Part shown: piece by piece, positions 4,824 through 64,000 of the stretch
Layout of the letters: each line of letters opens with the position of its first letter
How positions within the stretch are numbered: the stretch's first letter is position 1
Assembly: GCA_950097015.1 (NCBI GenBank)
Contig: CATNEN010000038.1
Location: 15,376,001-15,440,000, forward strand
Origin: Macrostomum hystrix
Lineage: Eukaryota > Animalia > Platyhelminthes
Direction: 5' to 3'
DNA length: 64,000 bases
The notes under the pieces: model-generated
What the model was told of the DNA's origin: nothing
Seen by the model: the letters and a program-made list of their open reading frames with translations, nothing else
Databases searched by the model: none
Position numbers and translations under genes: made by a program

Positions 4824-5173
4824 TGCGGGAGGGCTGCGGGCAGTGCCAAATCAATTGGTGACACTAGACCCGCAGCCAGCGAGGAGGCAATTCTGCCCAT
4901 TTCGCTGACTCCTAAGCACACACGCACTCAGATACCGTAAGCAGGCACACGCTAACACAGGTGTGTACATCTGCGCTGACTTTCTCATCGTCAGGCAGTG
5001 TACACTTTCACTGTGCCTTGGAGGTTGGCCCTCAAGGGCGTAAATTGCACGACAAGCCCTCAAGCCTTCTCTCCGCGGCTGCGCCCCAAATGAATGTGGC
5101 CTCGCCGTGGAATCGAACTTAGGGACCTTGGTGCGAGAGACAAACGCGATAACCGCTCTGCCACCGACCCCCT
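4789..5173 (-). mobile_element. tRNA-derived SINE family 1 copy (antisense, 22 nt after the GPCR stop)
   Basis: (ATT)n tail, A/B-box-like head on the minus strand, 11-bp TSD gcagtaactgc (4778-4788 / 5174-5184); homologous to copies at 27.2, 45.5, 54.5 and 56.4 kb. Confidence 0.85.
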
Positions 5174-16800: not shown

Positions 16801-19800
16801 GTGGAACAGAGGCTTTTCGGCGACCGAGACGGACCGAGTGCGGCGGCTGTTCAAAGCCTTCTGGACAGGCACGACGAGCTGATTAGGGCCAAGGCTCAGT
16901 CCCGCTACATTGATTTATTTTTGGTGAGATGGTTTTTTAAGCTGGTTGATTTGAACCGGTAGGTTCTTTTCTGGCAAATGTGAGTCAGGTGGGTTCTTTT
17001 CTGGCAGATGTGAGTCTGGTAGGTCTTTTCTGGCAGATGTGAGTCTGGTAGGTTCTTTTCTGGCAGATGTGAGTCAGGTGGGTTCTTTTCTGGCAAATTT
17101 GAGTCTGGTAGGTTCTTTTCTGGCAGATGTGAGTCAGGTGGGTTCTTTTCTGGCAGATGTGAGTCTGGTAGGTTCTTTTCTTGTAGATTTGAGTCTGGTA
17201 GGTTCTATTCTGGCAAATTTGAGTCTGGTAGGGTCTTTTCTGGTAGGCTTCAGTTTGTTAGGTTTCAGTCTGGTAGGCTTCAGTCTGGTAGGATTTCTGG
17301 TAGGCTTCAGTTTGGTAGGCTTCAGTCTGGTAGGCTTCAGTCTGGTAGGATTTCTGGTAGGCTTCAGTCTGGTAGGCTTCAGTCTGGTAGGATTTCTGGT
17401 AGGATTTCTGGTAGGCTTCAGTCTGGTAGGCTTCAGTCTGGTAGGATTTCTGGTAGGCTTCAGTCTGGTAGGCTTCAGTCTGGTAGGCTTCAGTCTGGTA
17501 GGCTTCAGTCTAGTAGGCTTCAGTCTGGTAGGCTTCAGTCTGGTAGGCTTCAGTCTGGTAGGATTCAGTCTGGTAGGCTTCAGTCTGGTAGGATTCAGTC
17601 TGGTAGGCTTTGAGTCCTGTAGATTTTAGTCAGTAAAGCTTTTGCACAATCGCACAATGGTGCATAATTTAATTTTAAAGATGATGCCTTATCCTTGCTA
17701 GTAAAAGAAAATGCTTCCGCAAAGCCAAACGAAAATCCCTTACTATCCAGAGCTACGAGGAGGCACCGATTCGATTTTTGCCAACCTACAAGTACCAGCT
17801 GGGCAGTCAACGATTCGACTCCGAAAAGCAGCGGGTGCCCAGCTGGTGCGACCGGGTTCTGTACAGAGCCGAGGGTCTGCGCTGCGAGCCAATGCAGTAC
17901 CGCAGCCTGCCAAACTATGTAGTTAGCGATCACAAACCCGTAGTATGCAATTTCACTAGTCAATTGGCGCGCATTAATCCTGTCCGGCAAAAGGGAACTT
18001 TGAAACGCGGCGTACAATGGTTGGACTCTTTAGAGAATGCTGTGTTGCCGCAGTGTACTCTGGAGTCCGGGCACGATGTCTTCTTTGGACAGCTGAGCTT
18101 CTGTGACACCTTTCAGGTAAGTCCTGCTGATCAATTGGGGTCAATTTTTCACGCTGTTCGATTCCTTGCTTATAAAGTTTTATTCTAGTTGATTTCAGTA
18201 TGGTATTTTTTCTCTTCGGTTTTTCTATTTTTTTATCTTCTTGGATTGTATCCCATCGGCTAGTTATGACGTTATTTGTTTTTATCTTGTAGATTTCCAG
18301 AAGTTAAGTGTATTTATTGTAGGTTTCTGGTTTCATGTAAAATTTCCGAGTTTACGTTAAATTTCCGGGCTTACGTTAAATTTCCGGGTTTACGTTGAAT
18401 TTCTGGGTTTACGTTGAATTTCCGGGTTTACGTTAAATTTCCGGGTTTAAGTTAGTTATCAATTTCTTATCAATCAATAAATTTTCTTTAATGACATATA
18501 TTTATGTATTAGCGACTCCACTCTGATTTCTATAAAAGTTTTATCATGCAAACAAAGCTGTTTCTTCTCTACCCTGATCAGGCCAGTGTCACATTGCGCA
18601 ATACTGGTCGCGTTGTTGCCAGCTGGCTACTGATGGCAACGCCGAACGCAGACGACAGCTGCCTGCGCGCCTCGCCAGTGGAATCTCAAGTACCGATTGG
18701 CGCCAGCGAAACAATCGTGCTTGACGCCACCCTGGGCCCCTGGCAGTGGCCACAGGCTGTCAGACGCTGGGCCGCCAGCAAACCCGATCCGGCATTCGCA
18801 CCAGGCGACGTCCTTGTCATTGCCCTTGTTGGCGGGGCTCACATCTTTATTGTACCGCACGGTGACATTGTGCCAAGCTGTTTTGGCCTTCCGTTGGACT
18901 GCCTGTGCAGGCTGCGGGAACCTGTGCTCAAAACTAACAGGGAGTCACTTCGTACCATACTCAAATCCTGCTTCGATTCGGCCAGTTGGTCTGACTCTAG
19001 CGCCGGTTAGTTGATTATTTTCTCTTGAATCTTCTTGACCCTCGCGATCTCATCAGCCTGTTAAAGTGAGATGTAACTCGATTGCCAACAAATAATCTGA
19101 ATCTCATGGCATAAATGATACGTAAAACTCACTCCAGATCTGGGACCAATTCGGTCTCCAATCCCCATCGAGGTTACTCGCCTGATTGAAGCCACGGGCG
19201 ATCCCGACTCTCCACTGCTGCTGCCAGCCGACCCGGCCGACGAAGACGCGTCGACTCTGTCAGCTGCCCAGATTTCCGCCATCGCCGATGCGCTCAGCTC
19301 CGGCGGCCGGCTGCCTACAATGCGACCTGGGGCGTTTCTGCACATCCTGCTGCTGTTGCTGCAGATGCTACCCGACAAGTCAGTCCCACTCATCTTTTCC
19401 GTCTTAGGGAGAGATTTTACTCTTACCTTTCTCATATCTCCTGTGTCTCATATCTTCCGTATCTCATCTCTTCTGTGTCTTATCTCTTCCGTGTCTCATC
19501 TCTCCCGTGTCTCATCTCTCCCCTATCTCATCTCTCCTGTGTCTCATCTCTCCTGTGTCTCATCTCTTCCGTATCTCACCTCTTCCGTGTCTCATCTCTT
19601 CCGTATCTCACCTCTTCCGTGTCTCATCTCTTCCGTATCTCACCTCTTCCGTGTCTCATCTCTTCTGTGTCTCATCTCTCCCGTGTCTCATCTCTCCCCT
19701 GTCTCATCTCTCCCCTGTCTCATCTCTTCCGTGTCTCATCTCTTCCGTATCTCACCTCTTCCGTGTCTCATCTCTCCCGTGTCTCATCTCTCCCCTGTCT

Positions 19801-23297: not shown

Positions 23298-26200
23298 TCA
23301 ATAATAGTCGTCATCTTCATTCCCAGGGCCGGAAGCGGCGGCTGCGGACTTGACCACCTCCTGACTGCGGTACATCTCGGCTAGCTGGGCAGCCGTGGTC
23401 GCCTCCTCCGGTCGTTTGTCATCGCGGCGTCGGACGAATCGCGGAAAGCGCAGACTGATGCCGCGACGGGCATCGGCCAGGCCGAGGCCGGCCACATAAG
23501 CGGGACTCAAGCTGAGATCGGCGGCTTTAACCTCCCAGACAACAACCGGATCGAACCAGGCGTCGGCAGTCTGGGCCGAGCCGCAGCGGACGTATCGCTT
23601 CGGCGAGTCGATTCTGTACTGGGCCAGATCGCGAGTGAAGGCGTCCAAATCTTCATCGGAGAAGCCGGTGCCAATTTTGCACACAGTCTGATATTCTTCG
23701 TCCTCAGGATTGTAGCAGGCCAGGAGGAATCCGCCAAGCTTGCCGGCTCGCTTGCCGGTGCCGTGGTAGCCGCCGACCACCACCAGGTCGAGTGTGTCGC
23801 CGACACCGTCGACATAGTCCTTCTTTAGCTTCAGCCAGCTGTGCGACCTGCCGGGATTGGAATTTCAATTAGTTTGGAGATTTTGGAGATCTCCAAAATC
23901 TCCAGGGAGGGAGAGAAGTAGAGTATGGGTGGGAGAGAAGTAGAGTATGGGTGGGAGAGAAGGGTATGGGTGGGAGAGAAGTAGAGTATGGGTGGGAGAG
24001 AAGTAGGGTATGGGTGGGAGAGAAGTAGAGTATGGGAGGGAGAGATGTAGAGTATGGGTGGGAGAGAAGTAGGGTATGGGTGGGAGAGAAGTAGAGTATG
24101 GGTGGTAGAGAAGTAGAGTATAGGTGGGAGAGAAGTAGAGTATGGGTGGGAGAGAAGTAGAGTATGGGTGGGAGAGAAGTAGAGTATGGGTGGGAGAGAA
24201 GTAGAGTATGGGTGGGAGAGAAGTAGAGTATGGGTGGGACAGAAGTAGAGCATGGGTGGGAGAGAAGTAGAGTATGGGTGGGAGAGAAGTAGAGTATGGG
24301 AGGGAGAGAAGTAGAGTATGGGTGGGAGAGAAGTAGAGTATGGGTGGGAGAGAAGTAGGGTATGGGTGGGAGAGAAGTAGAGTATGGGAGGGAGAGATGT
24401 AGACTATGGGTGGGAGAGAAGTAGAGTATGGGTGGGAGAGAATGGGTGGGAGAGAAGTAGAGTATGGGTGGGAGAGAATGGGTGGGAGAGAAGTAGAGTA
24501 TGGGTGGGAGAGAAGTAGAGTATGGGAGGGAGAGAAGTAGAGTATGGGTGGGAGAGAAGTAGAGTATGGGTGGGAGAGAAGTAGGGTATGGGTGGGAGAG
24601 AAGTAGAGTATGGGAGGGAGAGATGTAGACTATGGGTGGGAGAGAAGTAGAGTATGGGTGGGAGAGAATGGGTGGGAGAGAAGTAGAGTATGGGTGGGAG
24701 AGAATGGGTGGGAGAGAAGTAGAGTATGGGTGGGAGAGAAGTAGGGTATGGGTGGGAAAGAAGTAGAGTATGGGTGGGAGAGAAGTAGGGTATGGGTGGG
24801 AAAGAAGTAGAGTATGGGTGGGAGAGAAGTAGACACTAGGTGGGTAGACAGAGAGCAGGACTCACCGCTTCGCAATCTCGTAAGTGGCCTCGGTATCCAG
24901 CGCTTTGAGCATGAGTCCCTCGCAGTTGCCTTTAATAGCTTCGTCCAAGAAGCCCTGAATCTCCTCCGTGTCTGCGCAGTCCTGCCATTTGGCCAGAGCA
25001 AAGTGGCCAGCTAGCTCAGTCTCAGCAAAGTTAAAGCCGTCGCGCAGTATCTGGCGCCTCTCTCTGAGCGGCTTCTCAACTAGAGACTCGCCATTGTAAT
25101 ACAGAATGTCGAATACGAACACGCACACCTGCACCTTGATTGAATCGGCGTCCGCGTCTTTGCGCTTGCGCGTTGTTAGCACCTGAGCGAGTCAAAATTA
25201 TATGACCATTTTAATATGACAAGTGCACAATAAAAATTTGCTTTTTTATCGACGACTAATTGACGAGGGGCATTTCTAATTGACGAGTGTACATTTCTTA
25301 TTGATGAGTTTACATTTCTTATTGATGGGTGTACATTTATTATTGATGAGTTTACATTTCTTATTGATGAGTTTACATTTCTTATTGATGAGTGTACATT
25401 TCTTATTGATGAGTGTACATTTATTATTGATGGGTGTACATTTCTTATTGATGAGTTTACATTTCTTATTGATGGGTGTACATTTATTATTGATGGGTGT
25501 ACATTTATTATTGATGGGTGTACATTTCTTATTGATGGGTGTACATTTCTTATTGATGAGTGAACATTTCTTATTGATGGGTGTACATTTATTATTGATG
25601 GGTGTACATTTATTATTGATGAGTGTACATTTATTATTGATGAGTGAACATTTCTTATTGATGGGTGTACATTTATTATTGATGGGTGTACATTTATTAT
25701 TGATGAGTGAACATTTCCTATTGATGAGTGTACATTTCTTATTGACGAGTGAACATTTCTTATTGATGAGTGTACATTTCTTATTGACGAGTGTACATTT
25801 CTTATTGACGAGTGAACATTTCTTATTGATGAGTGTACATTTCTTATTGATGGGTGTACATTTATTATTGATGAGTGTACATTTATTATTGATGGGTGTA
25901 CATTTCTTATTGATGAGTGTACATTTATTATTGATGGGTGTACATTTCTTATTGACGAATGGAAATTTCTCATTGACAAGTAAATATTTATTATGGACGA
26001 GTGGACATTTTTTTATTGATGGAAGAAAAATTTCTTATTGTCGAATGGATATTTATAATATTTGAGTGCAAATTTCTTACTGACGAGTGAACATGTCTTA
26101 TTGATGAGTGGAAATATTTATTTATCTAGTTATTAATTAATGAATCAGAGATTACACAGCTAAATGCCAACTTAAAAAAAACAACAGCTGCATTCAAGCA

Positions 26201-26568
26201 GTACACTACTATAAGTAGCAGAGTTTAGTCCGCGTTTAAGCTGTCAAATACGTACTAAAATCTGTTTTGTTTTGAAGCAATACATTCAAGTGCTTGTTGA
26301 GCTGGTAAAGCACAAGGGATTTGGGAAAATATTGTGGGAAATTTTTCGCTCAACTGCTTTGCAATCTTCATGCTTAACTTTCTTTTTATACGTTTTGAGT
26401 CGGCTGATCCATAAATAAAAATCCCAACTTTACCTGACATCGCGTGCCGCAAATTAATCTAAGGAATTTAAAGGACTTTATTGGCAATTTTCTATTGCAG
26501 AGGCGCGAAGATTCCCGTTTATCATTCTTTTCGCTTTTCATTTTGAGCTTCTAGAAATTTCATTTTTA

Positions 26569-26617
<49 letters not shown>

Positions 26618-29600
26618 AAACAGCAGTCTCACCTGGAATGGCAGAATCTGTAGCTTCTCAGTGTCGAAGGCCACCGCCTCAGCGTCCAGAATAAAATCCA
26701 CAGCCTGGCGTCCAGTGAGCAGGTCAGGCACCCGGGCTGCAATGTCCGGATACTTGCTGGTATTGTTCTCCTGGTTGCGCGAGTAGACTCTAACGGAGCC
26801 GTCGGGCAGTCGGTGAATCTGGGCCCGCTCGCCGTCATATTTGAATTCGCAGGTGAAAGCGCCGACACCTTCGAAGCGCTTGAGAACCTCGGCTACACCG
26901 CGAGTAGGATGCGCCAGCATCGGCTTCAATGGCAGGCCAACCTGCAGACGGCAGCGGGACAGTAGGCCGGACAGGTCGCCGGAGCTGCTTGGTAGGGGAT
27001 AAGCAAGGAAACTTTGTTTCGAGTAATATGCGCCGAAAATCTCGAAAAATAACCTATTTACCGTTTCAACTTCCGTTTAAATGGAATAGAGAAAGCGTTC
27101 AAGCGTTGGAACCAGTTTCTGCACTTTAAAATATGTTTCTATATTTAGAAAATGTTTCTATTTTTAGAATCTGTTTCTATTTTTAGAATCTGTTTCTATT
27201 TTTAGAATCTGTTTCTTTCTTTAGAATCTGATTAGGAGGCGAGTGGCAGAGCGGTCTAACACATTTGCCTCTCGCACCAAGGTCCCTGAGCTCGATTTCG
27301 CGGCGACGCAACATTCATTTGCAGAGCAACCACGGAGAGAAAGCTTCGGGGCTTGCCGTGCAATTTACGCACTGGAGGGCCAACCTCCAAGATACAGTGA
27401 GAGTGTACACTGCCTGACGATGAGATCTGACGAAGTCAGGGCAGATGGACACACTTAAGTGAGCGTATGCCTGCGTGCGTACAGCATCTGTGTGAGTGTG
27501 TGCTCAGGAGTCAGCGAAATGAGCAGAATTGCCTCCTCGCTGGCTGCGGGTCTTATGGCACATGATAATAATGACACATCAGTATCCCCAAATGATGTGC
27601 CATTACCCGCAGCCCTCTAGCAATTATTATCATTATTATTAGAATCTGATTCTATTTTTAGAATCACAATCTATTTTTAGAATTAGTTTCCATTTTAGAA
27701 TCAGTTTCTATTTTTAGAATCAGTTTCTATATTTAGAATCAGTTTGAATTATTGACTCACCTTTCAGTTTCGGCAGTCTCAGCTAGCAGGGCTGCTATGA
27801 GGAGGTCATAGTTGGGACACCGGCAGTATGCGGTGCGAACCAGCAGTGCAGCTTCATCTTGGCGTCGTTTCCACGACTCGGCCGACTGGCCTTTGGCAGC
27901 GTCCGGGGTCTGCAAATTTGGTGACCTGACAAACGCGTGGCCCAGTGCGGATAGGACAGACAGTTCGGCTAATCCAATGCGCAGTCTACCAGATAGCGAT
28001 CTGATTAGGTATTTCGCTTCGCATTGGCGACAGGACACTAGTAGTGATTGGATTTTGGCCACCTGTTTAAGCGTGCAACAGTTTGTTCATAGCTTGAATA
28101 TGTCTTTGGTAAACGGTTGGGAGCAACTATGTCATTTTTCTTAAACTTTCGTAATATAATTAGCGACATGCGGGCATAGATAGATTTGGGTGAGATAATC
28201 CTGGGATAGATAAATGAAAGAAAACTTTGGTAAGATATACGATATTTTTTAAAGTAAGAAAACTTTAAGTTAGATAAATTCAATTTCAGATAATCCTAGG
28301 TTGGATCAGTTCAAGATGAGATAATCCTTGGTTGGATAAGTTCAAGATGAGATAATCCTTGGTTGGATAAATTCAAGATGAGATAATCCTTGGTTGGATA
28401 AATTTAAGATGAGATAATCCTAGGTTGGATAAATTCAAGATGAGATAATCCTAGGTTGGATAAATTCAAGATGAGATAATCCTTGGTTGGATAAGTTCAA
28501 GATGAGATAATCCTTGGTTGGATAAATTCAAGATGAGATAATCCTTGGTTGGATAAATTTAAGATGAGATAATCCTTGGTTGGATAAATTTAAGATGAGA
28601 TAATCCTTGGTTGGATAAATTCAAGATGAGATAATCCTAGGTTGGATAAATTCAAGATGAGATAATCCTTGGTTGGATAAGTTCAAGATGAGATAATCCT
28701 TGGTTGGATAAATTCAAGATGAGATAATCCTTGGTTGGATAAATTTAAGATGAGATAATCCTTGGTTGGATAAATTTAAGATGAGATAATCCTTGGTTGG
28801 ATAAATTCAAGATGAGATAATCCTAGGTTGGATAAATTCAAGATGAGATAATCCTTGGTTGGATAAGTTTAAGATGAGATAATCCTTGGTTGGAGAAGTT
28901 CAAGATTAGATAATCCTAGGTTGGATAAATAAAAAATTCAAGGTAAGATAATGATGAAATAGGCTACATAGGCTACATCGGGTGCAGTTGTACCTAGCCG
29001 AATCGAAGATCGGGGGTTCGATTCCTGACTTTACTGGAACAATTCGTATATATTAGCAAGACACTTAACCCAGCTGTGAAATCGGCATCAGCTGATGTGT
29101 AATTGATAGGTGTAATCAACTAGTATTGGTCATGTAAATGAGCAGTTGAGCTTACCTTTTTCTGCTGAGCCGCATTGCCAGACAGATCGGCTACCTCACG
29201 CAGGCGTTGAAAAACGGCAGCCACCGTCAGTGGCTTCGGCCGGCACATGACAGACTGGCGCGAGCGCAATGATTCGCTAACGGCACCCAAATCGCCCACA
29301 GTTTGAGCTCGCTGGCGAATCTTATCAACAGTTGAGCCGGTGCTCAAAGCCATTGCCTTCATCAGCACCGAATCGCCAATGCCTAATTCCACGGCTTCAT
29401 AGGCTGGAGCCAGCTGGTTCAGGCACAGGTAGACGCATGGCAACAAATCCTTGGGGCTTAATAGACGAACGGAGCGCAGGAAATTGCACAGCAATTCTAA
29501 AATTCGCAAACGGCCGGGTGTAGCTTCGATAGCTTCGAATGTCTTAGCCAGGGCCAGGTAGGGCACTGGTTCGCCGCTGGACCAGCTGGCGTCCAACAGA

Positions 29601-30292
29601 GGATCGTAGCGAGCCTTGCCCGGATTGTAATCCGATTCTTCTGTTGCCTGCTCTAGCTGGGCTGCGGTCTTCTTCTCCTGGCCAGAGGCCTGCGGCTTTG
29701 CCACCGGTTCCGGCGACTTTTGCAACTCAACCGGCTGTTGAGACTGCTCATTTTCAATCTTGGTTGTCTTCTTCTTTTTCAAAGACTCAATCTTCTTTGG
29801 CTGAGACTTCGTTATCTTCAGCTTTTTTGCTTTCTTTTGCTGCTGCTCAGATTCCGCCTCCGATGCCGAAGAATCTGACGAAGAGATCATCCGACGCCTG
29901 CGCTTCGAAGGCGGCGGCGATTCCGGCTGAGACGAAGACGAGGACAAAGACTCACCCGGCTCGGGGGATGAGCAATCATCAGAATCTGGCGAAGTGTTCT
30001 TTCGTTTATTGTTAACTACGGACGTCGTTGGTTCGCTCTTGATTTCGCTGCCTGCTTGTTCGCCATTCTGCCAGTCTTTGTTAGCAAGTGTCTCTTTTTT
30101 AACAAGTGTCTCAGTCTTAGTTGATTCTTTGATGCCAGTCTTCGTTGCTGTTGAAAGACTCGAAGCTGAGATTTGGCGAAGTGGACAGCCGCCATTGTCG
30201 CTATTCGGCTTGTCTGCAGTAGCGGTCGGCGCTTGTGTAAAGAAGGATGTTATGGAGCGCTGCTGCTGCTGCTTGCTTTTCTGCTGAGACAT
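23298..30292 (-). CDS. LIG1: DNA ligase I; exons 30292-29156, 28062-27761, 26984-26633, 25182-24866, 23847-23298; 885 aa
   Basis: N-terminal PIP box [16 protein letters not shown], active site [34 protein letters not shown]; GT-AG introns in phase (2658 nt). Confidence 0.97.
23905..24840. repeat. 22-bp G-rich minisatellite (gtagagtatgggtgggagagaa)n in LIG1 intron 4
   Basis: Visible tandem array. Confidence 0.96.
25275..26110. repeat. 21-bp minisatellite (tgtacatttcttattgatgag)n in LIG1 intron 3
   Basis: Visible; explains ORFs 25176-25979 and 25280-26065. Confidence 0.96.
27234..27638 (+). mobile_element. SINE family 1 full-length copy inserted into a 20-bp minisatellite in LIG1 intron 2
   Basis: Head ggcgagtggcagagcggtctaac (A box)...gagctcgatttc (B-box-like), (ATT)n tail, 13-bp TSD ttagaatctgatt (27221-33 / 27639-51). 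Confidence 0.85.
28288..28930. repeat. 31-bp minisatellite (gagataatccttggttggataaattcaagat)n in LIG1 intron 1
   Basis: Visible tandem array. Confidence 0.95.
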
Positions 30293-30414
30293 TGCTGTTA
30301 AGGACGTAATAAGACGGCTAACACTTGGCCGATAAATAGCTGGCAGACTTTGGCTCCTGAATGCAAACGCAATCAGCGGGCGAAGTAACTGCAAATTTAA
30401 GCGGTAGTAAGTTC

Positions 30415-30985
30415 GACACACTCCATGCCAACCAATCAATGTACACACACTCCAGGCCAACCAATCAATGTACACACACTCCAGGCCTGCCAACCAATCA
30501 ATGTACACACACTCCAGGCCAACCAATCAATGTACACACACTCCATGCCAACCAATCAATGTACACACACTCCAGGCCTGCCAACCAATCAATGTACACA
30601 CACTCCAGGCCTGCCAACAAAAAGATGTACACATACTCCAGGCCTGCCAACCAATTAATTAATGTACACACACTCCAGGCCTGCCAAACAATCAATGTAC
30701 ACACACTCCAGGCCAATCAATCAATGTACACACAATCCAGGCCAATCAATCAATGTACACACACTCCAGGCCTGCCAACAAAAAGATGTACACATACTCC
30801 AGGCCTGCCAACCAATTAATTAATGTACACACACTCCAGGCCTGCCAAACAATCAATGTACACACACTCCAGGCCAATCAATCAATGTACACACAATCCA
30901 GGCCAATCAATCAATGTACACACAATCCAGGCCAATCAATCAATGTACACACAATCCAGGCCAATCAATCAATGTACACACACTG
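30415..30985. repeat. 28-32-bp minisatellite (tccaggcctgccaaccaatcaatgtacacacac) upstream of LIG1
   Basis: Visible tandem array. Confidence 0.93.
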
Positions 30986-34071: not shown

Positions 34072-34119
34072 TTATAATTTCTCAACCTTCTTAACCAAAT
34101 CTCCAGAAGCAGAGGCATT

Positions 34120-34161
<42 letters not shown>

Positions 34162-37100
34162 TGTCGCTAAGGCGACGGCGGCAGTTGGAGCAGTGGCTAG
34201 GGCAGGCGCCGGCGCAGTGAAAGGGTCGCAGAAGTCGGCGGAACCGACCGCGTCGGCGGGTCCCACATCTTTAGACTTTCTAGTGGCGGCAGAGGCGGCT
34301 ACTGTTACAGAATTGGCTGCAGCATCGCTGCTAGACAGCCTTTGCTGCTTTTTGCTGCTCAACTTCTTCTTGCCGCCGGCTAGTAATTGTCGATAAAAAT
34401 CGGAGCGCAGGAATCTGCCGTAGGAATCGGCCTTCATCAGCAGGAAGATGTGCTCTTCGGCAGCTTCAAATGTGTACCGATCGGCTGACGCTGACGTTGC
34501 CGCGGAAATTCGCTTGCGAACGGCTTCTGCGACGGGTCCGGCGACGTTGACGGGCTCGGTGGCGTCCGGACCGAGAAATGTGTCGTAGATTCGATGCACC
34601 TCGCGATGCACCTGGCTAGCTGGCGCGTGTCTCAATCGTTGGCAAGCCTCCCAGAAGGCTAGATTCTCGGCGCTCACCTCTTTAAGTAGCCATTTTTCGA
34701 ATTCCTCCCGGCCGGCCGGGTCGCGCAGCAGTTCGTGAATGCTGAATCCCCAACGCTTCACCCGTCTGGCTGGTACGTCGCGAGTTCGACGCTCCGATTC
34801 CCAATAGTCGGCGCTATCCGACACCCACGGGTTCTGGCTCTGGTCTGGCAGGCCGCCGCCAATGAATGCGTCGAATTCTGCATACTGCTGGTAATAGCAG
34901 ATGGCGCTCTCCGCCGCCTTCGACACTTTCACGCGCCTGGAGGTGCGGGGGCAGAGGGCGGTGCGGCTATGAGAACTATATTGGAAGGCAATTAAGAGGA
35001 TCGGGGTGAGGGTAAAGATGAGAGAAAGAGAGACAATTAAAGAGACAATACTCTTTAATATTAATATATATTATACAAAGAGGAAAGGAAATAAGAGTAG
35101 AGAGAAGATGAGAGGAAAGAATATGAGAGAGGAGAGGATAGGAGAGAGGAGAGGAGACGAGAGGATAGGAGAGGAGACGAGAGGATAGGAAAGAGGAGAG
35201 GAGAGGAGAGAGGAGAGGAGAGGAGAGAGGAGAGGAGAGGAGAGAGGAGAGGAGAGGAGAGAGGAGAGGAGAGGAGAGAGGAGAGGAGAGGAGAGGAGAG
35301 GAGAGAGGAGAGGAGAGAGGAGAGGAGAGGAGAGGAGAGGAGAGGAGAGAGGAGAGGAGAGGAGAGGAGAGGAGAGGAGAGGAGAGGAGAGAGAGGAGAG
35401 GAGACGAGAGGATAGGAGAGAGGAGAGGAGACGAGAGGATAGGAGAGAGGAGAGGAGACGAGAGGATAGGAGAGAGGAGAGGAGAAGATAGGAGAGGAGA
35501 TAATAGAAGAGAAAAGGACAGGGGAGGAGAGAGAAGAGGAGAGGAGAGGAGAGGAGAGAGGAGAGGAGAGGAGAGAGAAGAGAGAAGAGGAGGTGAGAGG
35601 AGGTGAGAGGAGGTGAGAAAGGAAATGAGATGAGAGGATGGAAGAGTATACCATACGTGATTATGTATTGGAATAGCCAAGTAACTAAATCTCAAGCTCA
35701 AACAGTAAATTGTTAAATTTTAACACACAGCATATATCGAACATCTCACCGTCTAGCCAGCGCCTGTCGGAGCTTCTCAGCCTTGGCAGCTGGCTCGCAG
35801 GACTCAACAGGGCTGAGCCGGCCGCTGGGTATCGGAAAACTGGCCGGCCTAGTTGCCGCCTTCTTGGGTCGCTTGGCCCGGCACAGCTTGCGCATGTCGA
35901 CCTCCGTGGCAACAACAGCGCCAGGCGGCGGCCGGTACAGCAGCCAGAAGCCGCGCTCCTGACTCTCCAGCACCATGCGCTCGAGCCTCTCCAGTTTCCT
36001 GATGGATTTAGCGGATTAGAGCTTCAGACTTCTGACCGAGAGGCTGGGAGTTCGAATCTTAGCCAAAGGGTGACAATTTGAGTCATTTAAAACGAGTTTA
36101 CCTAGCTTTAAAATGGGTACTAACATCGAAAGGAGTCCCTAAAGAATTCCGTTTGTGCGGCAAAACATCCCAGTCCATGGACTGAAAAGCTGTACGCAAC
36201 CAGCTTTCAGAGGAATTATATCTCCCGAAAGATATCAGCGGATTCCAATAGTACCTGATAGCTCAGCGGATTCCAATAGTACCTGATAGCTTTCAGCGGA
36301 TTCCAAAAGTTACATGATAGCTCAGCGGATTCCAATAGTACCTGATAGCTTTCAGCGGATTCCAAAAGTTACATGATAGCTTTCAGCGGATTCCAAAAGT
36401 TACATGATAGCTTTCAGCGGATTCCAATAGTACCTGATAGCTTTCAGCGGATTCCAATAGTACCTGATAGCTTTCAGCGGATTCCAATAGTACCTGATAG
36501 CTTTCAGCGGATTCCAAAAGTTACATGATAGCTTTCAGCGGATTCCAATAGTACCTGACAGCTTTCAGCGGATTCCAATAGTACCTGACAGCTTTCAGCG
36601 GATTCCAATAGTACCTGATAGCTTACAGCGGATTCCAATAGTACCTGATAGCTTTCAGCGGATTCCAAAAGTACCTGATAGCTTTCAGCGGATTCCAATA
36701 TATACATGATAGCTTTCAGCGGATTCCAAAAGTACCTGATAGCTTTCAGCGGATTCCAATAGTTACATGATAGCTTTCAGCGGATTCCAATAGTATCTGA
36801 TAGCTTTCAGCGGATTCCAATAGTTACATTATAGCTTTCAGCGGATTCCAATAGTTACATGATAGCTTTCAGCGGATTCCAATAGTACCTGATAGCTTTC
36901 AGCGGATTCCAATAGTACCTGATAGCTTTCAGCGGATTCCAATAGTACCTGATAGCTTTCAGCGGATTCCAATAGTTACATGATAGCTTTCAGCGGATTC
37001 CAATAGTACCTGATAGCTTTCAGCGGATTCCAATAGTAACTGATAACTTACAGCGGATTCCAATAGTACCTGATAGCTTTCAGCGGATTCCAATAGTACC

Positions 37101-51202: not shown

Positions 51203-54200
51203 ATGAGCAAAGTAGTGGTAAGTTTAAAAATACACTCAAATGCAAATTTTTATGCTAAAAAACCGTTTAATTTAATTTAAACTTCTTTTATAACGACAGA
51301 AAAGTCAAGATTTCACAGGCGAGTTCACTTGTTGGACAGGCCAGATCACAGTTTAGACAGGCCAGATCACAGGTTGGACATGCCAGATCACAGGTTGGAC
51401 AGGTTAGTTCACAGGTTGGACAGGTTAGTTCACAGGTTGGACAGGCCAGTTCACAGGTTATAAAGGCCAGATCACAGTTTAGACATGCCAGATCACAGTT
51501 TAGACATGCCAGATCACAGGTTGGACAGGTTAGTTCACAGGTTGGACAGGCCAGTTCACAGGTTGGACAGGCCAGTTCACAGGTTATACAGGCCAGTTCA
51601 CAGGTTAGACAGGCCAGATCACAGTTTAGACATGCCAGATCACAGGTTGGACAGGTTAGTTCACAGGTTGGACAGGCCAGTTCACAGGTTGGACAGGCCA
51701 GTTCACAGGTTGGACAGGCCAGTTCACAGGTTATAAAGGCCAGATCACAGTTTAGACAGGCCAGATCACAGGTTAGACAGGGCAGTTCACAGGCTATACA
51801 GGCCAGATCACAGGTTATACAGGCCAGATCACAGGTTGGACAGGCCAGATCACAGGTTATACAGGGCAGTTCAAAGGCTATACAGGCCAGATCACAGGTT
51901 GGACAGGCCAGATCACAGGTTATACAGGGCAGTTCACAGGCTATACAGGCCAGATCACAGGTTGGACAGGCCAGATCACAGGTTATACAGGGCAGTTCAC
52001 AGGCTATACAGGGCAGTTCACAGGCTATACAGGCCAGATCACAGGTTGGACAGGCCAGATCACAGGTTAGACAGGGCAGTTCACAGGTTAGACAGGGCAG
52101 TTCACAGGTTAGACAGGGCAGTTCACAGGTTAGACAGGGCAGTTCACAGGTTAGACAGGGCAGTTCACAGGTTAGACAGGGCAGTTCACAAGTTAGACAC
52201 CATAATGACAGAGGATTTAATTTGAGTTAAGGTTTCTGTAACGCAATGTGCTGATCCGCATGCAGGAGCTTGGTCGCTTGGCCATTTGCGGCGACTTCAA
52301 CGCTGTTAAACGTCTAGCAACCAAGCAACTGATGCTAGCAGTTGATGAATACGGTTGGACTGCGCTGATGCTAGCTGCCGACTCTGACGATAGCCCACCT
52401 TCATTTGGAAAGTGCATTGAGTACTTTATCTATTTGGGTGCGAACCCGTGCTCGATTGACTCTGACGGCAACACTGCTGCGCACTTTGCGGCTAGGCAAG
52501 ACCATCTGCGGATGCTGGCGCTCCTGCCGTTTAAAGCAAAGTGGCAGTTGAACGGGTAATATTTTTCTTTCAGTTTGTTTAACCTCTTCTGCGCTTACTG
52601 GAGATTTTCTACAGAAGGAAGGAAATTCTGACTACGCAGAAAATCACAGAGAAGGAAATGGCGAGGAAATCGAGAGCCATCTCAACGGCCAGCCAATCAT
52701 GGAGAAAGAGAGGGGAAGGAAATAAAGTTAGGCATCCTATCCGCCAGCCAATCACGGAGATAGAGAGGGGAAGGAAAAGTGAGGCATCTAATCCGGCAGC
52801 CAATCACGCATAAAGAGAGGGTAAGGAAAACATTAGGCATCCTGTCCGCCAGCCAATCGCGGAGAAGGAAAGCTTTTTATGTTGTACCATCCTACCGGCA
52901 GCCAATCACAGGCGAGAGAAGAAGCAAGGAGCGAGGAGCAGTGATTGCTAGCCAATTATTAGCCGCGATTGTATTATTAGACGCTGTTGAGCACGTGCGA
53001 TTGTATCTGAAAAGATCGTAAAGATCTAGTTTCCTTAATTTGCAGTCGGGGAGAAAATCCGCTAATGGAAGCAGTTCGCGCAGGAAATTGGCGATGCGCC
53101 AAGCATCTTCTCTACTTGCTTCGCCAGATGAGATATAACGAGTGCGACACGAGCGATAATGCGAAACGAAGCAATCTGCTTCAGACGCGAAATCGTGAAG
53201 GCCTCACAGCAATGGATCTGGCTCAACGAAATGGCCACTCTGAATTAGCTAAAATCATTCAGATGTAAGGAACAATTAATTTTTTAGACTAAAATTTAAA
53301 GTAAATTATCAGCCTTTTGTATTTGTCTGAAACACGCAAAACAACAATTTTTTAGAGAGTTGAGACTTGAGGTGGACGAAGATGGCAGACTCTACGGCCT
53401 GACTGACTCGGTAAGTTACATGCTAGAACATAGCTTGCTATATTTGCTATATTTGCTTGCTAAATCAGCAAGGCTTATTTTGCTGAACGATAGTAACACT
53501 TTGTTACTTTGATGGTCGCAGGTAGTGTAGCACCTGTTTGAGGGTCGTGAGTGGTTTAGCACCTGTTTGTCAGTCGTAGGTAGTTTAGCACCTTTTTGAC
53601 GGTCACAGGTAGTTTAGCACCTGTTTGACAGTCACAGGTAGTTTAGCACCTGTTTGACGGTCACAGGTAGTTTAGCACTGGTTTGACAGTCACAGGTAGT
53701 TTAGCACCTGTTTGACGGTCACAGGTAGTTTAGCACCTGTTTGACGGTCACAGGTAGTTTAGCACCTGTTTGACAGTCACAGGTAGTGGCACCTGTTTAA
53801 AAAATGCCTACGTAAAATCAACTGATTCCCTTTTCTTGTTTTAAAGTACGTGATTCACAAGGTTGTATTCAACACAATAGAGAATGGTTTCCCAGAAGTT
53901 AAGAAACGGCTTTTCCGTACAGGAGGATCAGCAACTGGGAATTGTGCACAGATTGGCTAAGTCTAACAACTTGTCACAACTGATACGAACTGCTGACTGC
54001 GTCAACTGCGACCTGCCAGAGTCTGAAGGACCGACCGCTCTCATGAGGGCCTGCGCCAATTGCACCAGCAGCCGGTTGGCCGACTGGATGTCGCTGATGA
54101 AATGCGCCGACATCACCTGCGCCAGCGTTGGCGGCCTCACGAGCCTGCACTGGGCGGCTAGGGCTGGAAATTCTGTCGCCGTCGAGGCCCTACTGACAGC

Positions 54201-56129
54201 CGGCGCCAATCCGAACGAAGTTGACGACGTCAACGCCAGGACGCCGCTGATGCTGGCGTCGATCGGAGCTCCGACTGAAGGCGGCGTCGACGCTTCGGTT
54301 GGTCGCACGCTGCTGGCAGGCGGAGCCGACTGGAGCCTGACGGACGTCAGGGGCAAGACTGCGCTGGATTTGGCCAAGGATTATCGACGCAACGGCCTGG
54401 CTGACCTACTGCAACAGTGAGTTGCGATAGAGAGCTACGACACTGCTCTCATTATTTTATAATAATAATAATAATAGTTGTCATAATGTTAATAATTGCA
54501 GTAGGGCGGGCAATGGCACATCATTTGGTGACACACTTGACCCGCAGCTAGCGAGGAGGCAATTCTGCCCATTTCGCTGACTCCTGAGCACACACGCACA
54601 CAGATACTGTACGCAGGCACACGCTCACACAGGTGTGTACATCTGCGCTGACTTTCTCATCGTCAGGCAGTGTACACTTTCATTGTGCCTTGCAGGTTGA
54701 CCCTGGAGGGCGTGAATTGAACGACAAGCCCTCAAGCCTTCTCTCCGCGGCTGCGCCAAAAAAGAATGTGGCCTCGACGCGAAATCGAGCTCAGGGACCT
54801 TGGCGCTTCAGGCGAATCCTTTAACCACTCCGCCACCTTTCCCTCGACCTTTGTCATTGAAACATACTGAAAACAATTCGCTACACAACAATCAACAGTG
54901 ATTCGCAACCTTCTCTCCACGGTCAGGTATCGAAGCAAACGCTTTTTCGATGAACCAGTCCATCTGACAATGTCGAGCCAACAAAGGATGCCGCATTCAT
55001 ACAGTGCAGCGGGCACCGATGGTGATAACCAGATGCCCTTGTCATATCGCCTACCAAAAGCAGCCACGATGCCTACAATGCAAGTTAAATTTGCATTAAA
55101 TTCACTAAATTAATCTAAGTGCTTACGTGGTAGGCTTAGAGGCCATGTTAAATGGAACGAAAAATGCTTCACAAAAGCCAGTGGAAAACGGAAACGATGA
55201 AAAGCTGAGAAAAATGAGAACTGGTGGAAGCTGGGATAGCAGTCAGGGTCAAACAATAGCAGGAAAGCTAAAAAATCTTGATAGCTAGGTTTTATGTTCT
55301 CAAGGAAAGTGCAATGTTAGCATAGTTGATTGTATTCCTTATTTTTTTCATTCAATTTAGGAATTCGATTTTACAACGCAGCTATCGAGTAACTATTCCA
55401 CAGGGCATCTGTCTGATCATCAACAACAACACATTCAAAGACGGTACGAACCTCAAAGAACGATTTGGATCGACTTATGATGTCAATCGGGTGTTGAATC
55501 TGTTCACTCTTCTTCAATTCAAAGTTGAAGTGAAGCAGGATTTGACACGCTCAGAAATGATTAGTTGTTTCGAGCAGATTGGCAGGATGGATCACAGTCG
55601 ATTTGGCACATTTGTCTGCTTCCTCATGTCTCACGGAAGCGATGGTGTCGTCTACGGCACCGATGGCTTGACCATAGACCTGCAGAGCACTCTGGTGAGC
55701 CCACTGCAGGCCAGCCGGTGCAGAAGCCTCAGCGACAAGCCCAAGATATTCTTCGTGCAAGCATGTCGCGGCGCTCATGACAATCTAGTTTCTCCGCAGT
55801 ACGACTCCGATAGCGACCAGTTCTGTCCGAACGAGGCTGACTTCCTATTCTGCTATTCCAATGTCGAGGGTTACAAGAGCTACCGTAGTTGGGAAAGTGG
55901 ATCGCCGTTTATCAAACAGCTCTGCCAAGTCATTAAAACACATCACTCGAAGCATCACCTCACCGACATGATGAATGAAGTGAATCACATTGTGAGAAGC
56001 TGGCAGTTCACTAGGTCAACTGAGAAAGAAGAACCGGCTACAATGTGCATGGTGCCAAGCTATGTGTCCCGGCTGGGTGGCACGGTTTGGTTCGACCCGG
56101 GACGGGCAAGCAAGCTACAAACTTCCTGA
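51203..56129 (+). CDS. Ankyrin-repeat + caspase (peptidase C14A) fusion protein; exons 51203-51217, 52266-52555, 53046-53264, 53356-53410, 53923-54416, 54927-55079, 55361-56129; 664 aa
   Basis: Ankyrin motifs GWTALMLAA, GNTAAHFAA, GENPLMEAV, GLTAMDLA, GPTALMRAC, GLTSLHWAA, RTPLMLAS, GKTALDLA; caspase motifs GICLIINN, RFGS..D, LMSHG, KPKIFFVQACRG, ADFL, SYR, GSPFI. All junctions are in phase (1995 nt), the last via GC donor AT|gcaagt. The two domains are clear; the 15-nt first exon and the fusion are modelled. Confidence 0.8.
51330..52200. repeat. 21-bp minisatellite (cacaggttggacaggccagtt)n in ANK-caspase intron 1
   Basis: Visible; explains HRLDRP ORFs. Confidence 0.95.
53510..53800. repeat. 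29-bp minisatellite (ggtagtttagcacctgtttgacggtcaca)n in ANK-caspase intron 4
   Basis: Visible tandem array. Confidence 0.92.
54458..54842 (-). mobile_element. SINE family 1 copy in ANK-caspase intron 5
   Basis: Homologous body and (ATT)n tail; boundaries approximate. Confidence 0.82.
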
Positions 56130-59529: not shown

Positions 59530-59839
59530 TCAATCGTATGTAGCCCTGAAGCCGCCGCCGCCGCCGCTTCTAGCAGCTCCGGGATTCGCCGGATCCGGCA
59601 GGGCGGCAGCGCCGGGCGCGGCGTCGTCGCGGCCGTGCAGCACCATGGTGCGCACCTCCTCCATCTCGGCGAAGGGAATCCAATCGTCGCCAACTGGACG
59701 CCCGGCGTCAAGACGCTCGCGCTCCGTCTCGAAGACGGTCTCGTGCTTCTCCCAGGCCTGGTCGCAGGCGGCGCACATGAAGGCGGAGTTGAAGGCGCCG
59801 CACGGACAGGAGCGGCACTGGTGCTGCCGGGTGTCGCCT
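59530..59839 (-). CDS. FAM221B: Terminal exon of a FAM221B-like (DUF4475) gene; upstream exons presumably beyond the window end
   Basis: Acceptor ctcag at 59840; HQCRSCPCGAFNSAFMCAACDQAWEKHETVFETERERLDAGRPVGDDWIPFAEM resembles the FAM221B C-terminus (CAACD..WEEHETFF...GRP.G..YVPFAEM). Confidence 0.75.
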
Positions 59840-60709
59840 CTGAGGTGGTGTTGGTTTTGGGAGGCATGTCGTCAATTTAGTGGATAAAAAGTGTGACACA
59901 CTAAAAGTGGGGAACGAACCTCGCGCTGGCAGACCGAGACCGGTTTCTGGCTTGTTTGCCTTCGTCAGTCAGCCATAGCCACACGCAGTCCTCTCCCACC
60001 ACTCTTAGTGTGCACAGAAGTCTGTTTTAAGCTTGCCATTTTTATGGCGATATTTTTTAGTGTTATGTGAGAGTTTTGCAGCCAAGTCTTTGCTTTTCTA
60101 CTGTTGTCAGTAGTCTGAATTGTATCTCTCACAAAAAGGCTTCTATCGACTATCAACTTGGGCCCTTTGGGGCCAACTCAAAGATGCAGTGCTGTGTGTA
60201 CACACTGTACGCTTAACAATAAGAAAGTCATACAAGGCATGTGTATCGCTTGCCCTGTGTGTACGCGCGTGTCCCAGAGCTCGATTCTGCGGCGGGGCCA
60301 CATTCAATTTTCTCCATTCTCGGATCTGCGCTCAAAATAGTTTATTTATATTTATTCGAAAATTACATTCCGCACTCTAGGTCAGTGAAATAGACGGTCT
60401 ATTAATCTTGTTTTTTAAGGACTTTATAAGACTTAGAAATCTGAATGGAATTTAAGTGGGCGTTAGTAGGAAGCAAAAGCCAAAAATAGCAACAGCAGAA
60501 AGTACGAGCAACCGAAAGGAGAATGATTAGACAAAATCCGCCCCCAGAGATCAACTATTCATTTCAGCGCAGGCCCGGTTCGGCATGACAGCAGCTGTGC
60601 CGACGTGGAGCTGGCTGAGACCGGATCCGCAGAGGCGCTGACGTGGAGCTGCCGGAGACCGGATCCGCAGCTGTGCTGACGTGGAACGGCCCCAGCCGGA
60701 CCGACATGC

Positions 60710-62614
60710 GCACTCCTGCTGAAAATACTACTCTTCGCATTGCTCTGTACCACGGCGGAGACGATAAACCCAAGACACCAGAACTGGGTGGACACACCGA
60801 TGTACTGCCCGGAGCCCTCCAGGCCACAGATCTTCAAGCTGCCACCGGACATCGAGTGCAAGATGCCTAGCAGTATACAACAGCACCGACAGCCGATCAA
60901 CCTGACAATCTTTAGACCAAACCAGGTCTCTCACCGATCAACACTCAAGATCTGTTACCGAGAAACGTATGTCTTCACCAGCGTAGCACTGAAAACGATT
61001 GCCGCTAAAGTGGTAAGACCAGAAATGACTGTTACGGTGCAGAAACATCTAGTTTCAGAGGAAGATTGTGAGTCCTGGGAGGAAGGTTACCGAACACCAG
61101 ATGGCATCCTTGAAGAAGATGGGAAAGCTCCGAACAAAGCTGAACGCTTTACTACTCACATCTGGACAACAGAGGAATTCGACCCAACGGCTAGTACCCA
61201 AACTAGATATACGAAATCAGCGTCCACGCTGATAACGAAAATTCCGTTCTTCGTGGTGAATAAGAAAATGTCATCGCTATATATCCCACTAGGACATTGC
61301 AATTACACCATAGGAAAATGTCTTCACGAGTCCACTCTACAGGCCGAGAAGGATGCGCCGTTGGAGAGACAAGTACCCAATAAATTATGGGAAGCTCTGA
61401 GATACTACGACACAACATTCAAGGTCGCTGGAGAACGCCAGTACAGATATGCCTGGACACCCAGCGCTGCAATTGACTGCCCGTACCAGGAAGACAGGCG
61501 AATTGAAGGAACCATACACACAGGATGGTTAATGTCCAAGGACGCTACCTACGCTTTGACTTTTAAACACCCACCACACTCAATGGAGCTGAAATGCGGA
61601 GGAACGACAACTAAACTATTCAGGTCAGAACAAGGAAAGTTGGTTAAACTAGAAGGATCCGAAGCAGAATTCTTATCGATAGTACAAGGCAATTTTAATA
61701 ACTCTAGCACAGCAAAGAGGGCAAAGAGAGACTTGGTATCACAGGAAACTCTAGCAGCGAAACTACAGAGCGTTGAACTTACAATGGAAAACAGAATTGG
61801 TGATCTGACTCGTCATGTAATCCTTCAACAATGCCGACTCCAACAGACCATTTTTAGATACATTAAAGACTTCATAAGGATACAACCAACACTAGCGGTG
61901 AGGACACTGTTCAAAGACAAGCACCTCAAGGCCAGAACAATAGCCCAGCATGTCGTAATCTTCAAATGCATCCCAGTGACCGACTTCGAATTCCATCAAC
62001 CACACTGGAATCAAAGCCGATGTTTCTCCAAACCTCCGTTGAAGTACAAAGTAGCGGAGACCAACCGTACAGGATTTTTGGACGTAAGAACTATGGAAAT
62101 TGAGACAGAGCACCCCACCTTTCAGGACTGCTCGAACCGAACTGGATACCTGTTACCCAAAGAGGACAAAGTGTACAAGGTCGACTCAAATTTCACCAGC
62201 TTCGAACTTATACAGGTAAAGAAATTGAAGAACGAAGATTGGGGAATAGAGGCTATGAAATTACCTAACATCAAACGGATTATCTTTACACCAGAAACAG
62301 ATATTAAAATAGAAGAAATCCGAAGGCCAATTACATTGCACGATCTGTACACGCAGATGAAGGACCAGAGAGAATTTCTGAGAACGGTATTTAAACTACC
62401 AAAGCAGAAGACTTCACAGACGCTCGACCTCCCACCATTGGAAGCAAACATAGCCCTCAAAACTTATGACTTCGCATCTTGGATGCCGTGGATAGGCATA
62501 AAACTCAATATTTTCAACATAGCCGTTGGAGCTGCCGCTCTCTGTGTATACTTCTACATCATACTTAAAACCATAATAGTTTGTCACAGGCTCTATCGGA
62601 AAAAGTACGAGTGA
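60710..62614 (+). CDS. env: Envelope-like glycoprotein (class III / herpesvirus gB-type fusion protein)
   Basis: Signal-peptide-like ALLLKILLFALLCTTAE (in frame, upstream of the tracked ORF), at least 7 N-glycosylation sequons, furin site KRAKR (61715-29), gB-like PTLAVRTLF...LKARTI...VVIFKCIPV...CFSKPPL, C-terminal TM. No in-frame ATG for the signal peptide. Confidence 0.8.
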   Translation, partial: ALLLKILLFALLCTTAETINPRHQNWVDTPMYCPEPSRPQIFKLPPDIECKMPSSIQQHRQPINLTIFRPNQVSHRSTLKICYRETYVFTSVALKTIAAKVVRPEMTVTVQKHLVSEEDCESWEEGYRTPDGILEEDGKAPNKAERFTTHIWTTEEFDPTASTQTRYTKSASTLITKIPFFVVNKKMSSLYIPLGHCNYTIGKCLHESTLQAEKDAPLERQVPNKLWEALRYYDTTFKVAGERQYRYAWTPSAAIDCPYQEDRRIEGTIHTGWLMSKDATYALTFKHPPHSMELKCGGTTTKLFRSEQGKLVKLEGSEAEFLSIVQGNFNNSSTAKRAKRDLVSQETLAAKLQSVELTMENRIGDLTRHVILQQCRLQQTIFRYIKDFIRIQPTLAVRTLFKDKHLKARTIAQHVVIFKCIPVTDFEFHQPHWNQSRCFSKPPLKYKVAETNRTGFLDVRTMEIETEHPTFQDCSNRTGYLLPKEDKVYKVDSNFTSFELIQVKKLKNEDWGIEAMKLPNIKRIIFTPETDIKIEEIRRPITLHDLYTQMKDQREFLRTVFKLPKQKTSQTLDLPPLEANIALKTYDFASWMPWIGIKLNIFNIAVGAAALCVYFYIILKTIIVCHRLYRKKYE

Positions 62615-63973
62615 CCAGGAATTCGGGCAATTCAAAGACGGATAAAGGCGACGCGAGAACAACACGAATTGTTAGTACAGCCAAGCACGGACACTAGCTA
62701 CAGACACACGGGCCCACGCCGCCCAGCACCAGAGGCACCAACCACAAATAAGGAACAGCATCACCCGATGATTCCGTCTGCTCCACTGGCTTCATCAATC
62801 TATCCGACGATCAGCTCATGGCCACCGCCGATAGTGGCAGCAATTACGAACGGCCAGAAATACACGGTGACACGACTGAAGATAGGCACGCGAGTCTGCA
62901 GAGCGCTGATAGACAGCGGAGCTGAGAGGTCGCTGATAGACGAAGCGACGGCGCGCCGATACAGTGACAGCTTCGAGAAGCCGACGACAGAGCTACAAGG
63001 AGTACACGGAGGAAATCTCACGCAATCCGGAATGATCACGTTACCAGTCGAAGCAGGAAACGCAATCGTCAACGTTAAGTTTCATGTCATTCCTAACTTG
63101 AGCTCTGGGAGATACCATGCACTCCTGGGAATTGATTACTTAAGTCAGTTGCAGGAGGGTATGTCTATCAATTACCAACAGCAACAGATGCAGTTAAATG
63201 GCAGATCGTATGAAATCATGACAGTCGCCGCCCAAGAAGCCCCAAATAAGATCAGACTAGTTTCCGTGGTAAACCTGAATCCATGGGAAACAGCTCAAAT
63301 TACAGCTAGAACCGACTCAAAGGAGGAATTGCCTGACACGGTACTTTTCGAGCCAGACAGGGGTATCGTCGAGAATAAGGCGATAGGTCTGACTCAGGAG
63401 ATAGTTCATCCGGACGAGAAGGGAGAGATACACGTTCTCATATCTAACGAATCAGCCAGACCGATCACTCTGTACCCGGATACAGCCATAGGTTCGTATG
63501 AGGCAGATATAAAGACATATGAAATAGCTGTGAATCAGGAACAGGCACCGGCAATGACAGAGACAGAATTCAGAGATGCGATTAATCTGCAGGGAGCCGA
63601 GATAACAGCAGAGCAGAAAGAACAACTAAGAGAAATCCTCTGGGAGAACAAGGAAGCATTTCGTCTCTCAGATGATGAGATAGGCTTTACAGAAGTAGCG
63701 AAACACGAACTCCACATAAAACCGATTGTGGAGGTGAAGCTGATTTCAAATCAAGAGTCTTTCCAAGTGCACACCGACAGGCTGAAGCCAATGGCCACGT
63801 CAACACCACATGTGATGCTTCCTGACCTCAGACCGAGCGACCCACAGCGCCACCAGCGACAGCCAAGGCAGCGATTCACCAAGGAAGTGAGTGTGCAGGC
63901 AGAGGAGCTGGACGCACAGGCCGATACAGCTCGGAAGAAATACAATCTGAGGAGTAAAGTGAAACTTCTTTGA
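62615..63973 (+). pseudogene. pol: pro-pol remnant: retropepsin protease, linker, RT N-terminus fused in frame to integrase C-terminal tail
   Basis: ALIDSGAERSLI and LLGIDYL (aspartic protease); EQKEQLREILWENKEAF...IGFTEVAKHELHI (pre-RT); VHTDRLKP...KYNLRS (gypsy IN tail). No YxDD, RNase H or DDE motifs. Confidence 0.82.
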
Positions 63974-64000
63974 CAACTGATGTCAAGGTAGCGAGGAAGC

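Follow-up and report, generated by a model that had tools for sequence, protein, structure and literature searches.

Env ahead of the protease in a Ty3/gypsy-type element of Macrostomum hystrix, very probably a broken copy

In env-bearing BEL/Pao elements and canonical errantiviruses, env usually lies downstream of pol. In the window, the 64,000-nucleotide stretch of M. hystrix DNA analysed here, an envelope gene instead lies upstream of pol sequence and no gag is visible. This raises the question of whether the locus represents a lineage in which env has taken the place of gag, as the first-pass annotation had proposed, or what is left of an element with a different layout. The window element is very probably a broken copy of Ty3/gypsy type with env before the protease in one frame, from which gag and the RT-RNase H-integrase portion have probably been deleted; the intact form is likely to be a single Gag-Env-Pro-Pol polyprotein.

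Two ORFs in the same frame occupy the last 3.3 kb of the window and are separated in the ORF list by a single stop codon. ORF1 (60680-62614) has 644 codons from stop to stop and ORF2 (62615-63973) has 452; the window ends 27 nt past the pol stop. When 60300-64000 was base-shuffled 500 times, no open frame exceeded 234 codons, against 644 in the real sequence. Within the 64-kb window there is no LTR pair, no second copy of the element and no tRNA gene, and no match to a primer-binding site or polypurine tract was found in the parts of the element that are present. The genes flanking the element are ordinary animal genes. The features are as follows, in window coordinates.

60425..60685, + strand: LTR-like or leader segment, cut short on its 3' side (contig starts or branch points at 60425, contig exits at 60685)
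60680..62614, + strand: env, predicted class III (gB/nyamivirus-like) fusion glycoprotein (Pfam, ESM Atlas, AlphaFold, Foldseek, motifs)
60685..60688, no strand: 5' deletion junction (loose contig ends on both sides)
60707..60763 (residues 10-28), + strand: N-terminal hydrophobic segment with no ATG before it (hydropathy)
62510..62593 (residues about 611-638), + strand: putative Env transmembrane anchor (hydropathy; helix 611-643 in the AlphaFold model)
62612..62614, + strand: stop codon private to the window copy, splitting env from protease (contigs, tblastn)
62867..63157, + strand: retropepsin, DSG at 62912-62920 (Pfam RVP, E 3.2e-07; gag-asp_proteas, E 1.2e-06)
63158..63743, + strand: post-protease spacer and the stretch leading up to RT (pairwise likeness to the M. 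lignano protein P0001)
63743..63747, no strand: 3' deletion junction, in frame (loose contig ends on both sides)
63747..63973, + strand: integrase C-terminal tail and end of pol (tail profile match)

ORF1 is predicted to be a class III fusion protein. It matches the Pfam family Monjiviricetes_fusion (PF24664, E 3.8e-10) and, weakly, Glycoprotein_B (E 0.0016), and it contains 16 cysteines, seven N-sequons and a furin-like RAKR site at 61718-61729. Its ESM Atlas features score 0.95-0.96 to negative-strand virus glycoproteins; a PDB sequence search gave no match. A single-sequence fold was uninformative (pLDDT only 34.6); the AlphaFold model, with an alignment of 57 sequences, has a pLDDT of 78.6 and a pTM of 0.53. 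The top Foldseek matches among solved structures are all herpesvirus gB (HSV gB, E 8e-21; TM 0.24-0.38), and the best among predicted viral structures is a nyamivirus-like G (E 9e-27); global TM-scores are only 0.2-0.4, and the class III assignment draws on the E-values and on domain-level likeness. The Pfam match and gB-like fold bear out the glycoprotein ORF that had been annotated at about 635 codons.

The RVP match in ORF2 likewise agrees with the earlier call of a DSG retropepsin directly after env. Remnants of the start of RT and of the integrase tail had also been claimed: the stretch before RT and the integrase tail are present, and no RT catalytic domain is left, the RT profile reaching at best 8.1 bits in the window. 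The tail was recognised with a profile of the last 130 aa of six relatives, which matches ORF2 379-448 (E 2e-05 in a two-sequence search). The RT-based Ty3/gypsy label is putative for the window copy: RT is gone, the protease comes first and the integrase tail last, and the full PR-RT-RH-IN order is found only in relatives.

An HMMER profile search of 1.84 billion representative proteins returned 64 matches. The best of these (E 1e-73) is P0001 (PAA86625.1, BOX15_Mlig009479), a protein of 2852 aa from the Macrostomum lignano annotation in a 5-member cluster. In one ORF it carries env at 667-1510, PR at 1626, RT at 1969, RH at 2190 and IN at 2433-2606. A gag profile from which P0001 was left out gives its N-terminal part 26.8 bits, against 5.2 for the best of 200 shuffles, and a CCHC motif is located at 396.

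P0001 is collinear in one frame with window positions 60749-63724. Signal, Env, anchor, linker, protease, pre-RT stretch and C-terminal end follow one another in the same order; for ORF2 8-370 against P0001 1535-1912, pairwise identity is 24% (E 9e-21). The likeness stops at 63724, 57 residues short of the RVT_1 match of P0001, after which the window jumps to a tail matching the ends of six full-length relatives. The two elements differ in that a Thr-rich insert of 200 residues lies at the furin site in P0001 and is missing from the window, and they are only 24-31% identical; P0001 therefore belongs to another family. A quick env tree was built from 39 matches and the window (the other 25 of the 64 cover fewer than 450 of the 644 profile positions); in this tree the window is sister to P0001 with an SH-aLRT of 96, both being long, compositionally odd branches. 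It groups with this flatworm element and apart from the nematode proteins P0039 and P0041.

Searches for close relatives by word index gave none among 4884 candidates for env near its length, 2638 for env in longer sequences and 3406 for ORF2 1-370 in longer sequences. No related loci were found in viral contigs, and none of 44 pattern matches in metagenome contigs was confirmed.

Gene order was read from the 64 matches, 28 of which have a gag, PR or RT call. Where env is fused into a longer ORF, which is the only case on which this census informs (stand-alone env ORFs give no order), gag is upstream of env in 19 of 20 proteins, the first PR is downstream in 18 of 19 and RT is downstream in 7 of 7. 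The exceptions are P0024, with a weak gag call after env, and P0032, with PR on both sides. Eight of the 19 gag-before-env proteins and all seven RT proteins were themselves used in the profiles; each has its own Pfam match (24 of 64 scanned). Ten of the 64 have gag, env and PR in that order within a single ORF.

ORF1 as it stands is not a free-standing gene, because no ATG in its frame precedes the N-terminal hydrophobic segment. The earliest one, at 60800 (residue 41), follows this segment, which therefore reads as an internal signal sequence; the segment aligns with an internal hydrophobic segment of P0001 (658-675) and is likely to have served as the internal signal of a polyprotein.

Other copies of the element were found by a run search, in which 20 runs from 8 studies contain the element stretch. 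Contigs of six runs (X1, X4, X5, X7, X14 and X17; one per study, six studies) were compared, and the counts that follow are among the contigs listed. Each run has several variant contigs, 85-99% identical to the window.

Family sequence starts at about 60425. The segment from there to 60685 includes a 38-bp tandem repeat (60602-60685, 2.2 copies), and its summed depth exceeds that of env in all six runs compared, depth being a hint only. We infer that it is an LTR; there is no second LTR in the window. It abuts env with no spacer, contrary to the roughly 340 nt that had been placed between a putative LTR and env.

Behind 60685, contigs leave the window in all six runs, and one from X17 (record 9) extends into 676 nt that do not resemble the window; loose ends enter before 60688 in at least two of the six (X4, X5). 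At the other site, contigs leave behind 63743 in X14, X4, X7, X5 and X17, where record 11 of X17 continues for 2249 nt, and loose ends lie before 63747 in X1, X5 and X17. Thus, the window copy has lost two internal stretches, of at least 676 and 2249 nt.

The contigs locate the points at which other copies depart from the window but do not reveal what the extra sequence encodes; its probable content is read from relatives. At 63743-63747 the loss is likely to comprise RT, RNase H and most of integrase; the stretch of P0001 that corresponds to it is about 865 aa long and contains RT, RH and IN. At 60685-60688, by analogy with P0001, the rest of the LTR, the primer-binding site and gag are likely to have been lost; the 676 nt that make up the measured part of this stretch are possibly LTR.

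The letters at the junctions, two at 60686-60687 and three at 63744-63746, fit neither flank. A retro-copied spliced env mRNA was considered as the origin of the 5' junction and is thought unlikely, because these letters match neither side and no ATG was brought into frame.

The window copy has no visible gag, as had been noted: a gag profile searched against the whole window, split into 1043 six-frame pieces, reached at best 6.8 bits (E 0.27). The explanation then offered, that env occupies the gag slot or that gag is absent, is supported neither by the other copies, which have extra sequence between the LTR-like piece and env, nor by the sister element, which has Gag there in the same ORF. 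Gag is likely to have been deleted from the window copy.

Gag is ascribed to the window's own family on the strength of relatives, which leaves some room for an intact family that starts with env. Its env would have its own ATG in the lost stretch, gag would lie elsewhere (for example after pol) or nowhere, and only LTR or leader sequence would be missing at 60685-60688. In such a family, the 2028 nt unlike the window that precede 60425 in record 9 of X17 could represent an extended 3' region able to hold another ORF, and the ENV-GAG-POL arrangement reported from two mites in the available part of one study (PMC13524379) indicates that the order can vary. However, P0001 has Gag in frame before the equivalent internal hydrophobic segment, all but one of the 20 gag calls among relatives are upstream of env, and ORF1 has no ATG before its signal. 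An env-first family is therefore improbable. The same low probability attaches to an env-pro-pol(-gag) design in which Pol reaches particles only through the Env tail and gag is absent or encoded in the sequence of about 2 kb that precedes the LTR-like segment in one contig. If a family without upstream gag did exist, it would have a new gene order for reverse-transcribing viruses.

It is also conceivable that the env-protease form, with its two deletions, has replicated as a non-autonomous element that intact copies mobilise, since the 3' deletion leaves the frame open and env is otherwise unbroken. Yet no contig among those listed crosses either junction, and in X17 both contigs that make up all of the depth at 63787 leave at 63747. 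None of the six runs has the stop codon at 62612-62614, and there is no start codon ahead of the env signal. This makes a non-autonomous form very improbable, and a broken copy of a longer element is the preferred reading.

The stop codon is private to the window copy. At 62612-62614, all listed contigs that cover the codon differ from the window and have no stop (6/6 runs), and P0001 reads through this position in one frame by tblastn. Stop read-through between env and protease was considered as a mode of expression and rejected, as the stop is missing from other copies. Contigs without gaps span the env-protease junction in X14 (61923-62991), X17 (60749-62799), X5 (62557-62991) and X1 (62525-62713). 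Env ahead of pro-pol, as first annotated, is thus real and family-wide. Third codon positions account for 36 of the 58 differences listed inside the frame (p 7e-06); therefore, the family remained coding until a recent time.

A locus composed of two elements, nested or in tandem, with env from one and pol from the other, had been named in advance as the case that would undo the env-pro-pol reading; the stop between ORF1 and ORF2 in the window would suit it, yet single contigs of four runs bridge the junction, one P0001 tblastn HSP covers 61829-63724 and the unrelated Logan protein P0003 likewise continues from the Env tail into protease, so this explanation has next to no probability.

The first-pass annotation suggested that Pol is tethered to the membrane through the tail of Env. 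It is reasonable to place Pol behind the cytoplasmic tail of Env, because Env, linker and protease share one frame. Gag, in turn, would be tethered on the other side of Env and not be missing.

In all ten relatives with gag, env and PR in this order, a hydrophobic 17-mer is found before Env (mean 1.55-2.61) and after it (1.53-2.66), giving the look of a single-ORF, twice membrane-crossing polyprotein in 10/10 relatives checked. From hydropathy and the general working of signal sequences, the product of intact copies would be a single polyprotein passing through the ER membrane twice, with Gag and Pol cytosolic and Env luminal. Synthesis of Gag would take place in the cytosol; the first hydrophobic segment would thread Env into the ER, and the second would stop transfer and put PR-RT-RH-IN back in the cytosol. 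Gag and Pol would initially be tethered to the membrane, flanking Env. The parts would then be released by signal peptidase, by furin-like cleavage and by the protease of the element, and particles would bud with the fusogen aboard. Unless splicing or partial termination occurs, a single polyprotein would necessarily yield Gag, Env and Pol in equal amounts.

The locus had been put forward as the best candidate for an undescribed system. In the available part of their paper, Chary and Hayashi (eLife, PMC13524379) already report Ty3/gypsy elements with gB-type env arranged GAG-ENV-POL in Nematoda, Bryozoa and Platyhelminthes. They list an M. lignano element with 16 copies (Platyhelminthes_Rhabditophora_Mlig_errantivirus_2), count 51 env and 93 pol ORFs in ENV-POL arrangement in the M. 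lignano assembly, and credit Sacco et al. 2022 (J Gen Virol, PMID 35550022) for the flipped env-pol order in nematodes. P0001 is probably Mlig_errantivirus_2, judging by species and size (an 8559-nt ORF against 8864 nt between the LTRs).

As far as that paper is available, its GAG-ENV-POL errantiviruses share with the window element a gB-type env before pol, two hydrophobic segments around the ectodomain and, probably, membership of a multi-copy invertebrate family. The window copy differs from them in having neither gag nor RT-RH-IN and in its private stop. Short motifs of the window have no match in the available supplements of PMC13524379, and the available main text contains no statement that the three genes form one ORF. 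In searches that covered few subscription papers, only PMC13524379 and its preprint were found for gag-env-pol order, and nothing was found on gag-env-pro-pol order, on NERV or on Macrostomum LTR retrotransposons with an envelope.

Two nematode-derived matches, P0039 (Caenorhabditis tropicalis) and P0041 (Globodera), bear on the comparison with the Nematoda endogenous retroviruses (NERV). As reportedly described by Sacco et al. in J Gen Virol in 2022, NERV is one continuous gag-env-pro-pol ORF with an env akin to that of Nyamiviridae. These traits match P0039 and P0041, as well as the top nyamivirus-like Foldseek matches. Set beside NERV, the window family has env-pro continuity in six runs; gag-env continuity is found only in its relatives.

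The window copy is inert: its signal is not preceded by a start codon, its stop is private, and both gag and RT are missing. The element is a new family within the published GAG-ENV-POL class, although the figures and GitHub sequences of PMC13524379 may include it. It adds one family to that class, and the locus illustrates that a double deletion can mimic a 'gag-less' design.

Host genes in the window were called by matches to Pfam domains:

3573-4766, GPCR of the Srw/rhodopsin type
16186-16962, inositol-phosphatase-like EEP domain
23298-30526, minus strand, DNA ligase
34072-35070, minus strand, RGS with a GGL domain
53881-54420, ankyrin repeats
55326-56129, caspase
59530-59871, minus strand, FAM221A/B exon (E 8.9e-13)

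Short-period satellites are numerous among these genes across 3573-56129. The FAM221A/B exon lies approximately 550 nt from the start of the retroelement and is oriented away from it. Immediately upstream of the element, 59900-60310 contains very high-copy repeats, with a summed depth of about 1e5 in the public sequencing run X1; a 39-nt piece of this region (60271-60309) is found again in the window at 5088, 27282, 45727 and 54758.

Three gag-env-pol relatives (P0040, P0055 and P0032) contain two protease-like domains within a single ORF; in P0040 and P0055 both are in tandem after Env, while P0032 has one on either side of Env. In the Macrostomum lignano polyprotein P0001, a long insert that is mucin-like and rich in Thr (residues ~1030-1200) sits at the furin site of Env; the window env has no such insert.

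Other copies of the family are represented by contigs from public sequencing runs. In one X1 contig, the sequence jumps from 61033, within env, back to 60425, with 13 letters in between; this may be a different copy with an LTR inserted in its own env, or a rearrangement. A 2967-nt contig from a second run (X17, record 9) aligns to the LTR-like piece at 60425-60685. In the contig-to-window alignment, the 2028 nt ahead of 60425 show no likeness to the window; this stretch could be host flank, or the element could have a long 3' region here, leaving space for an additional ORF.
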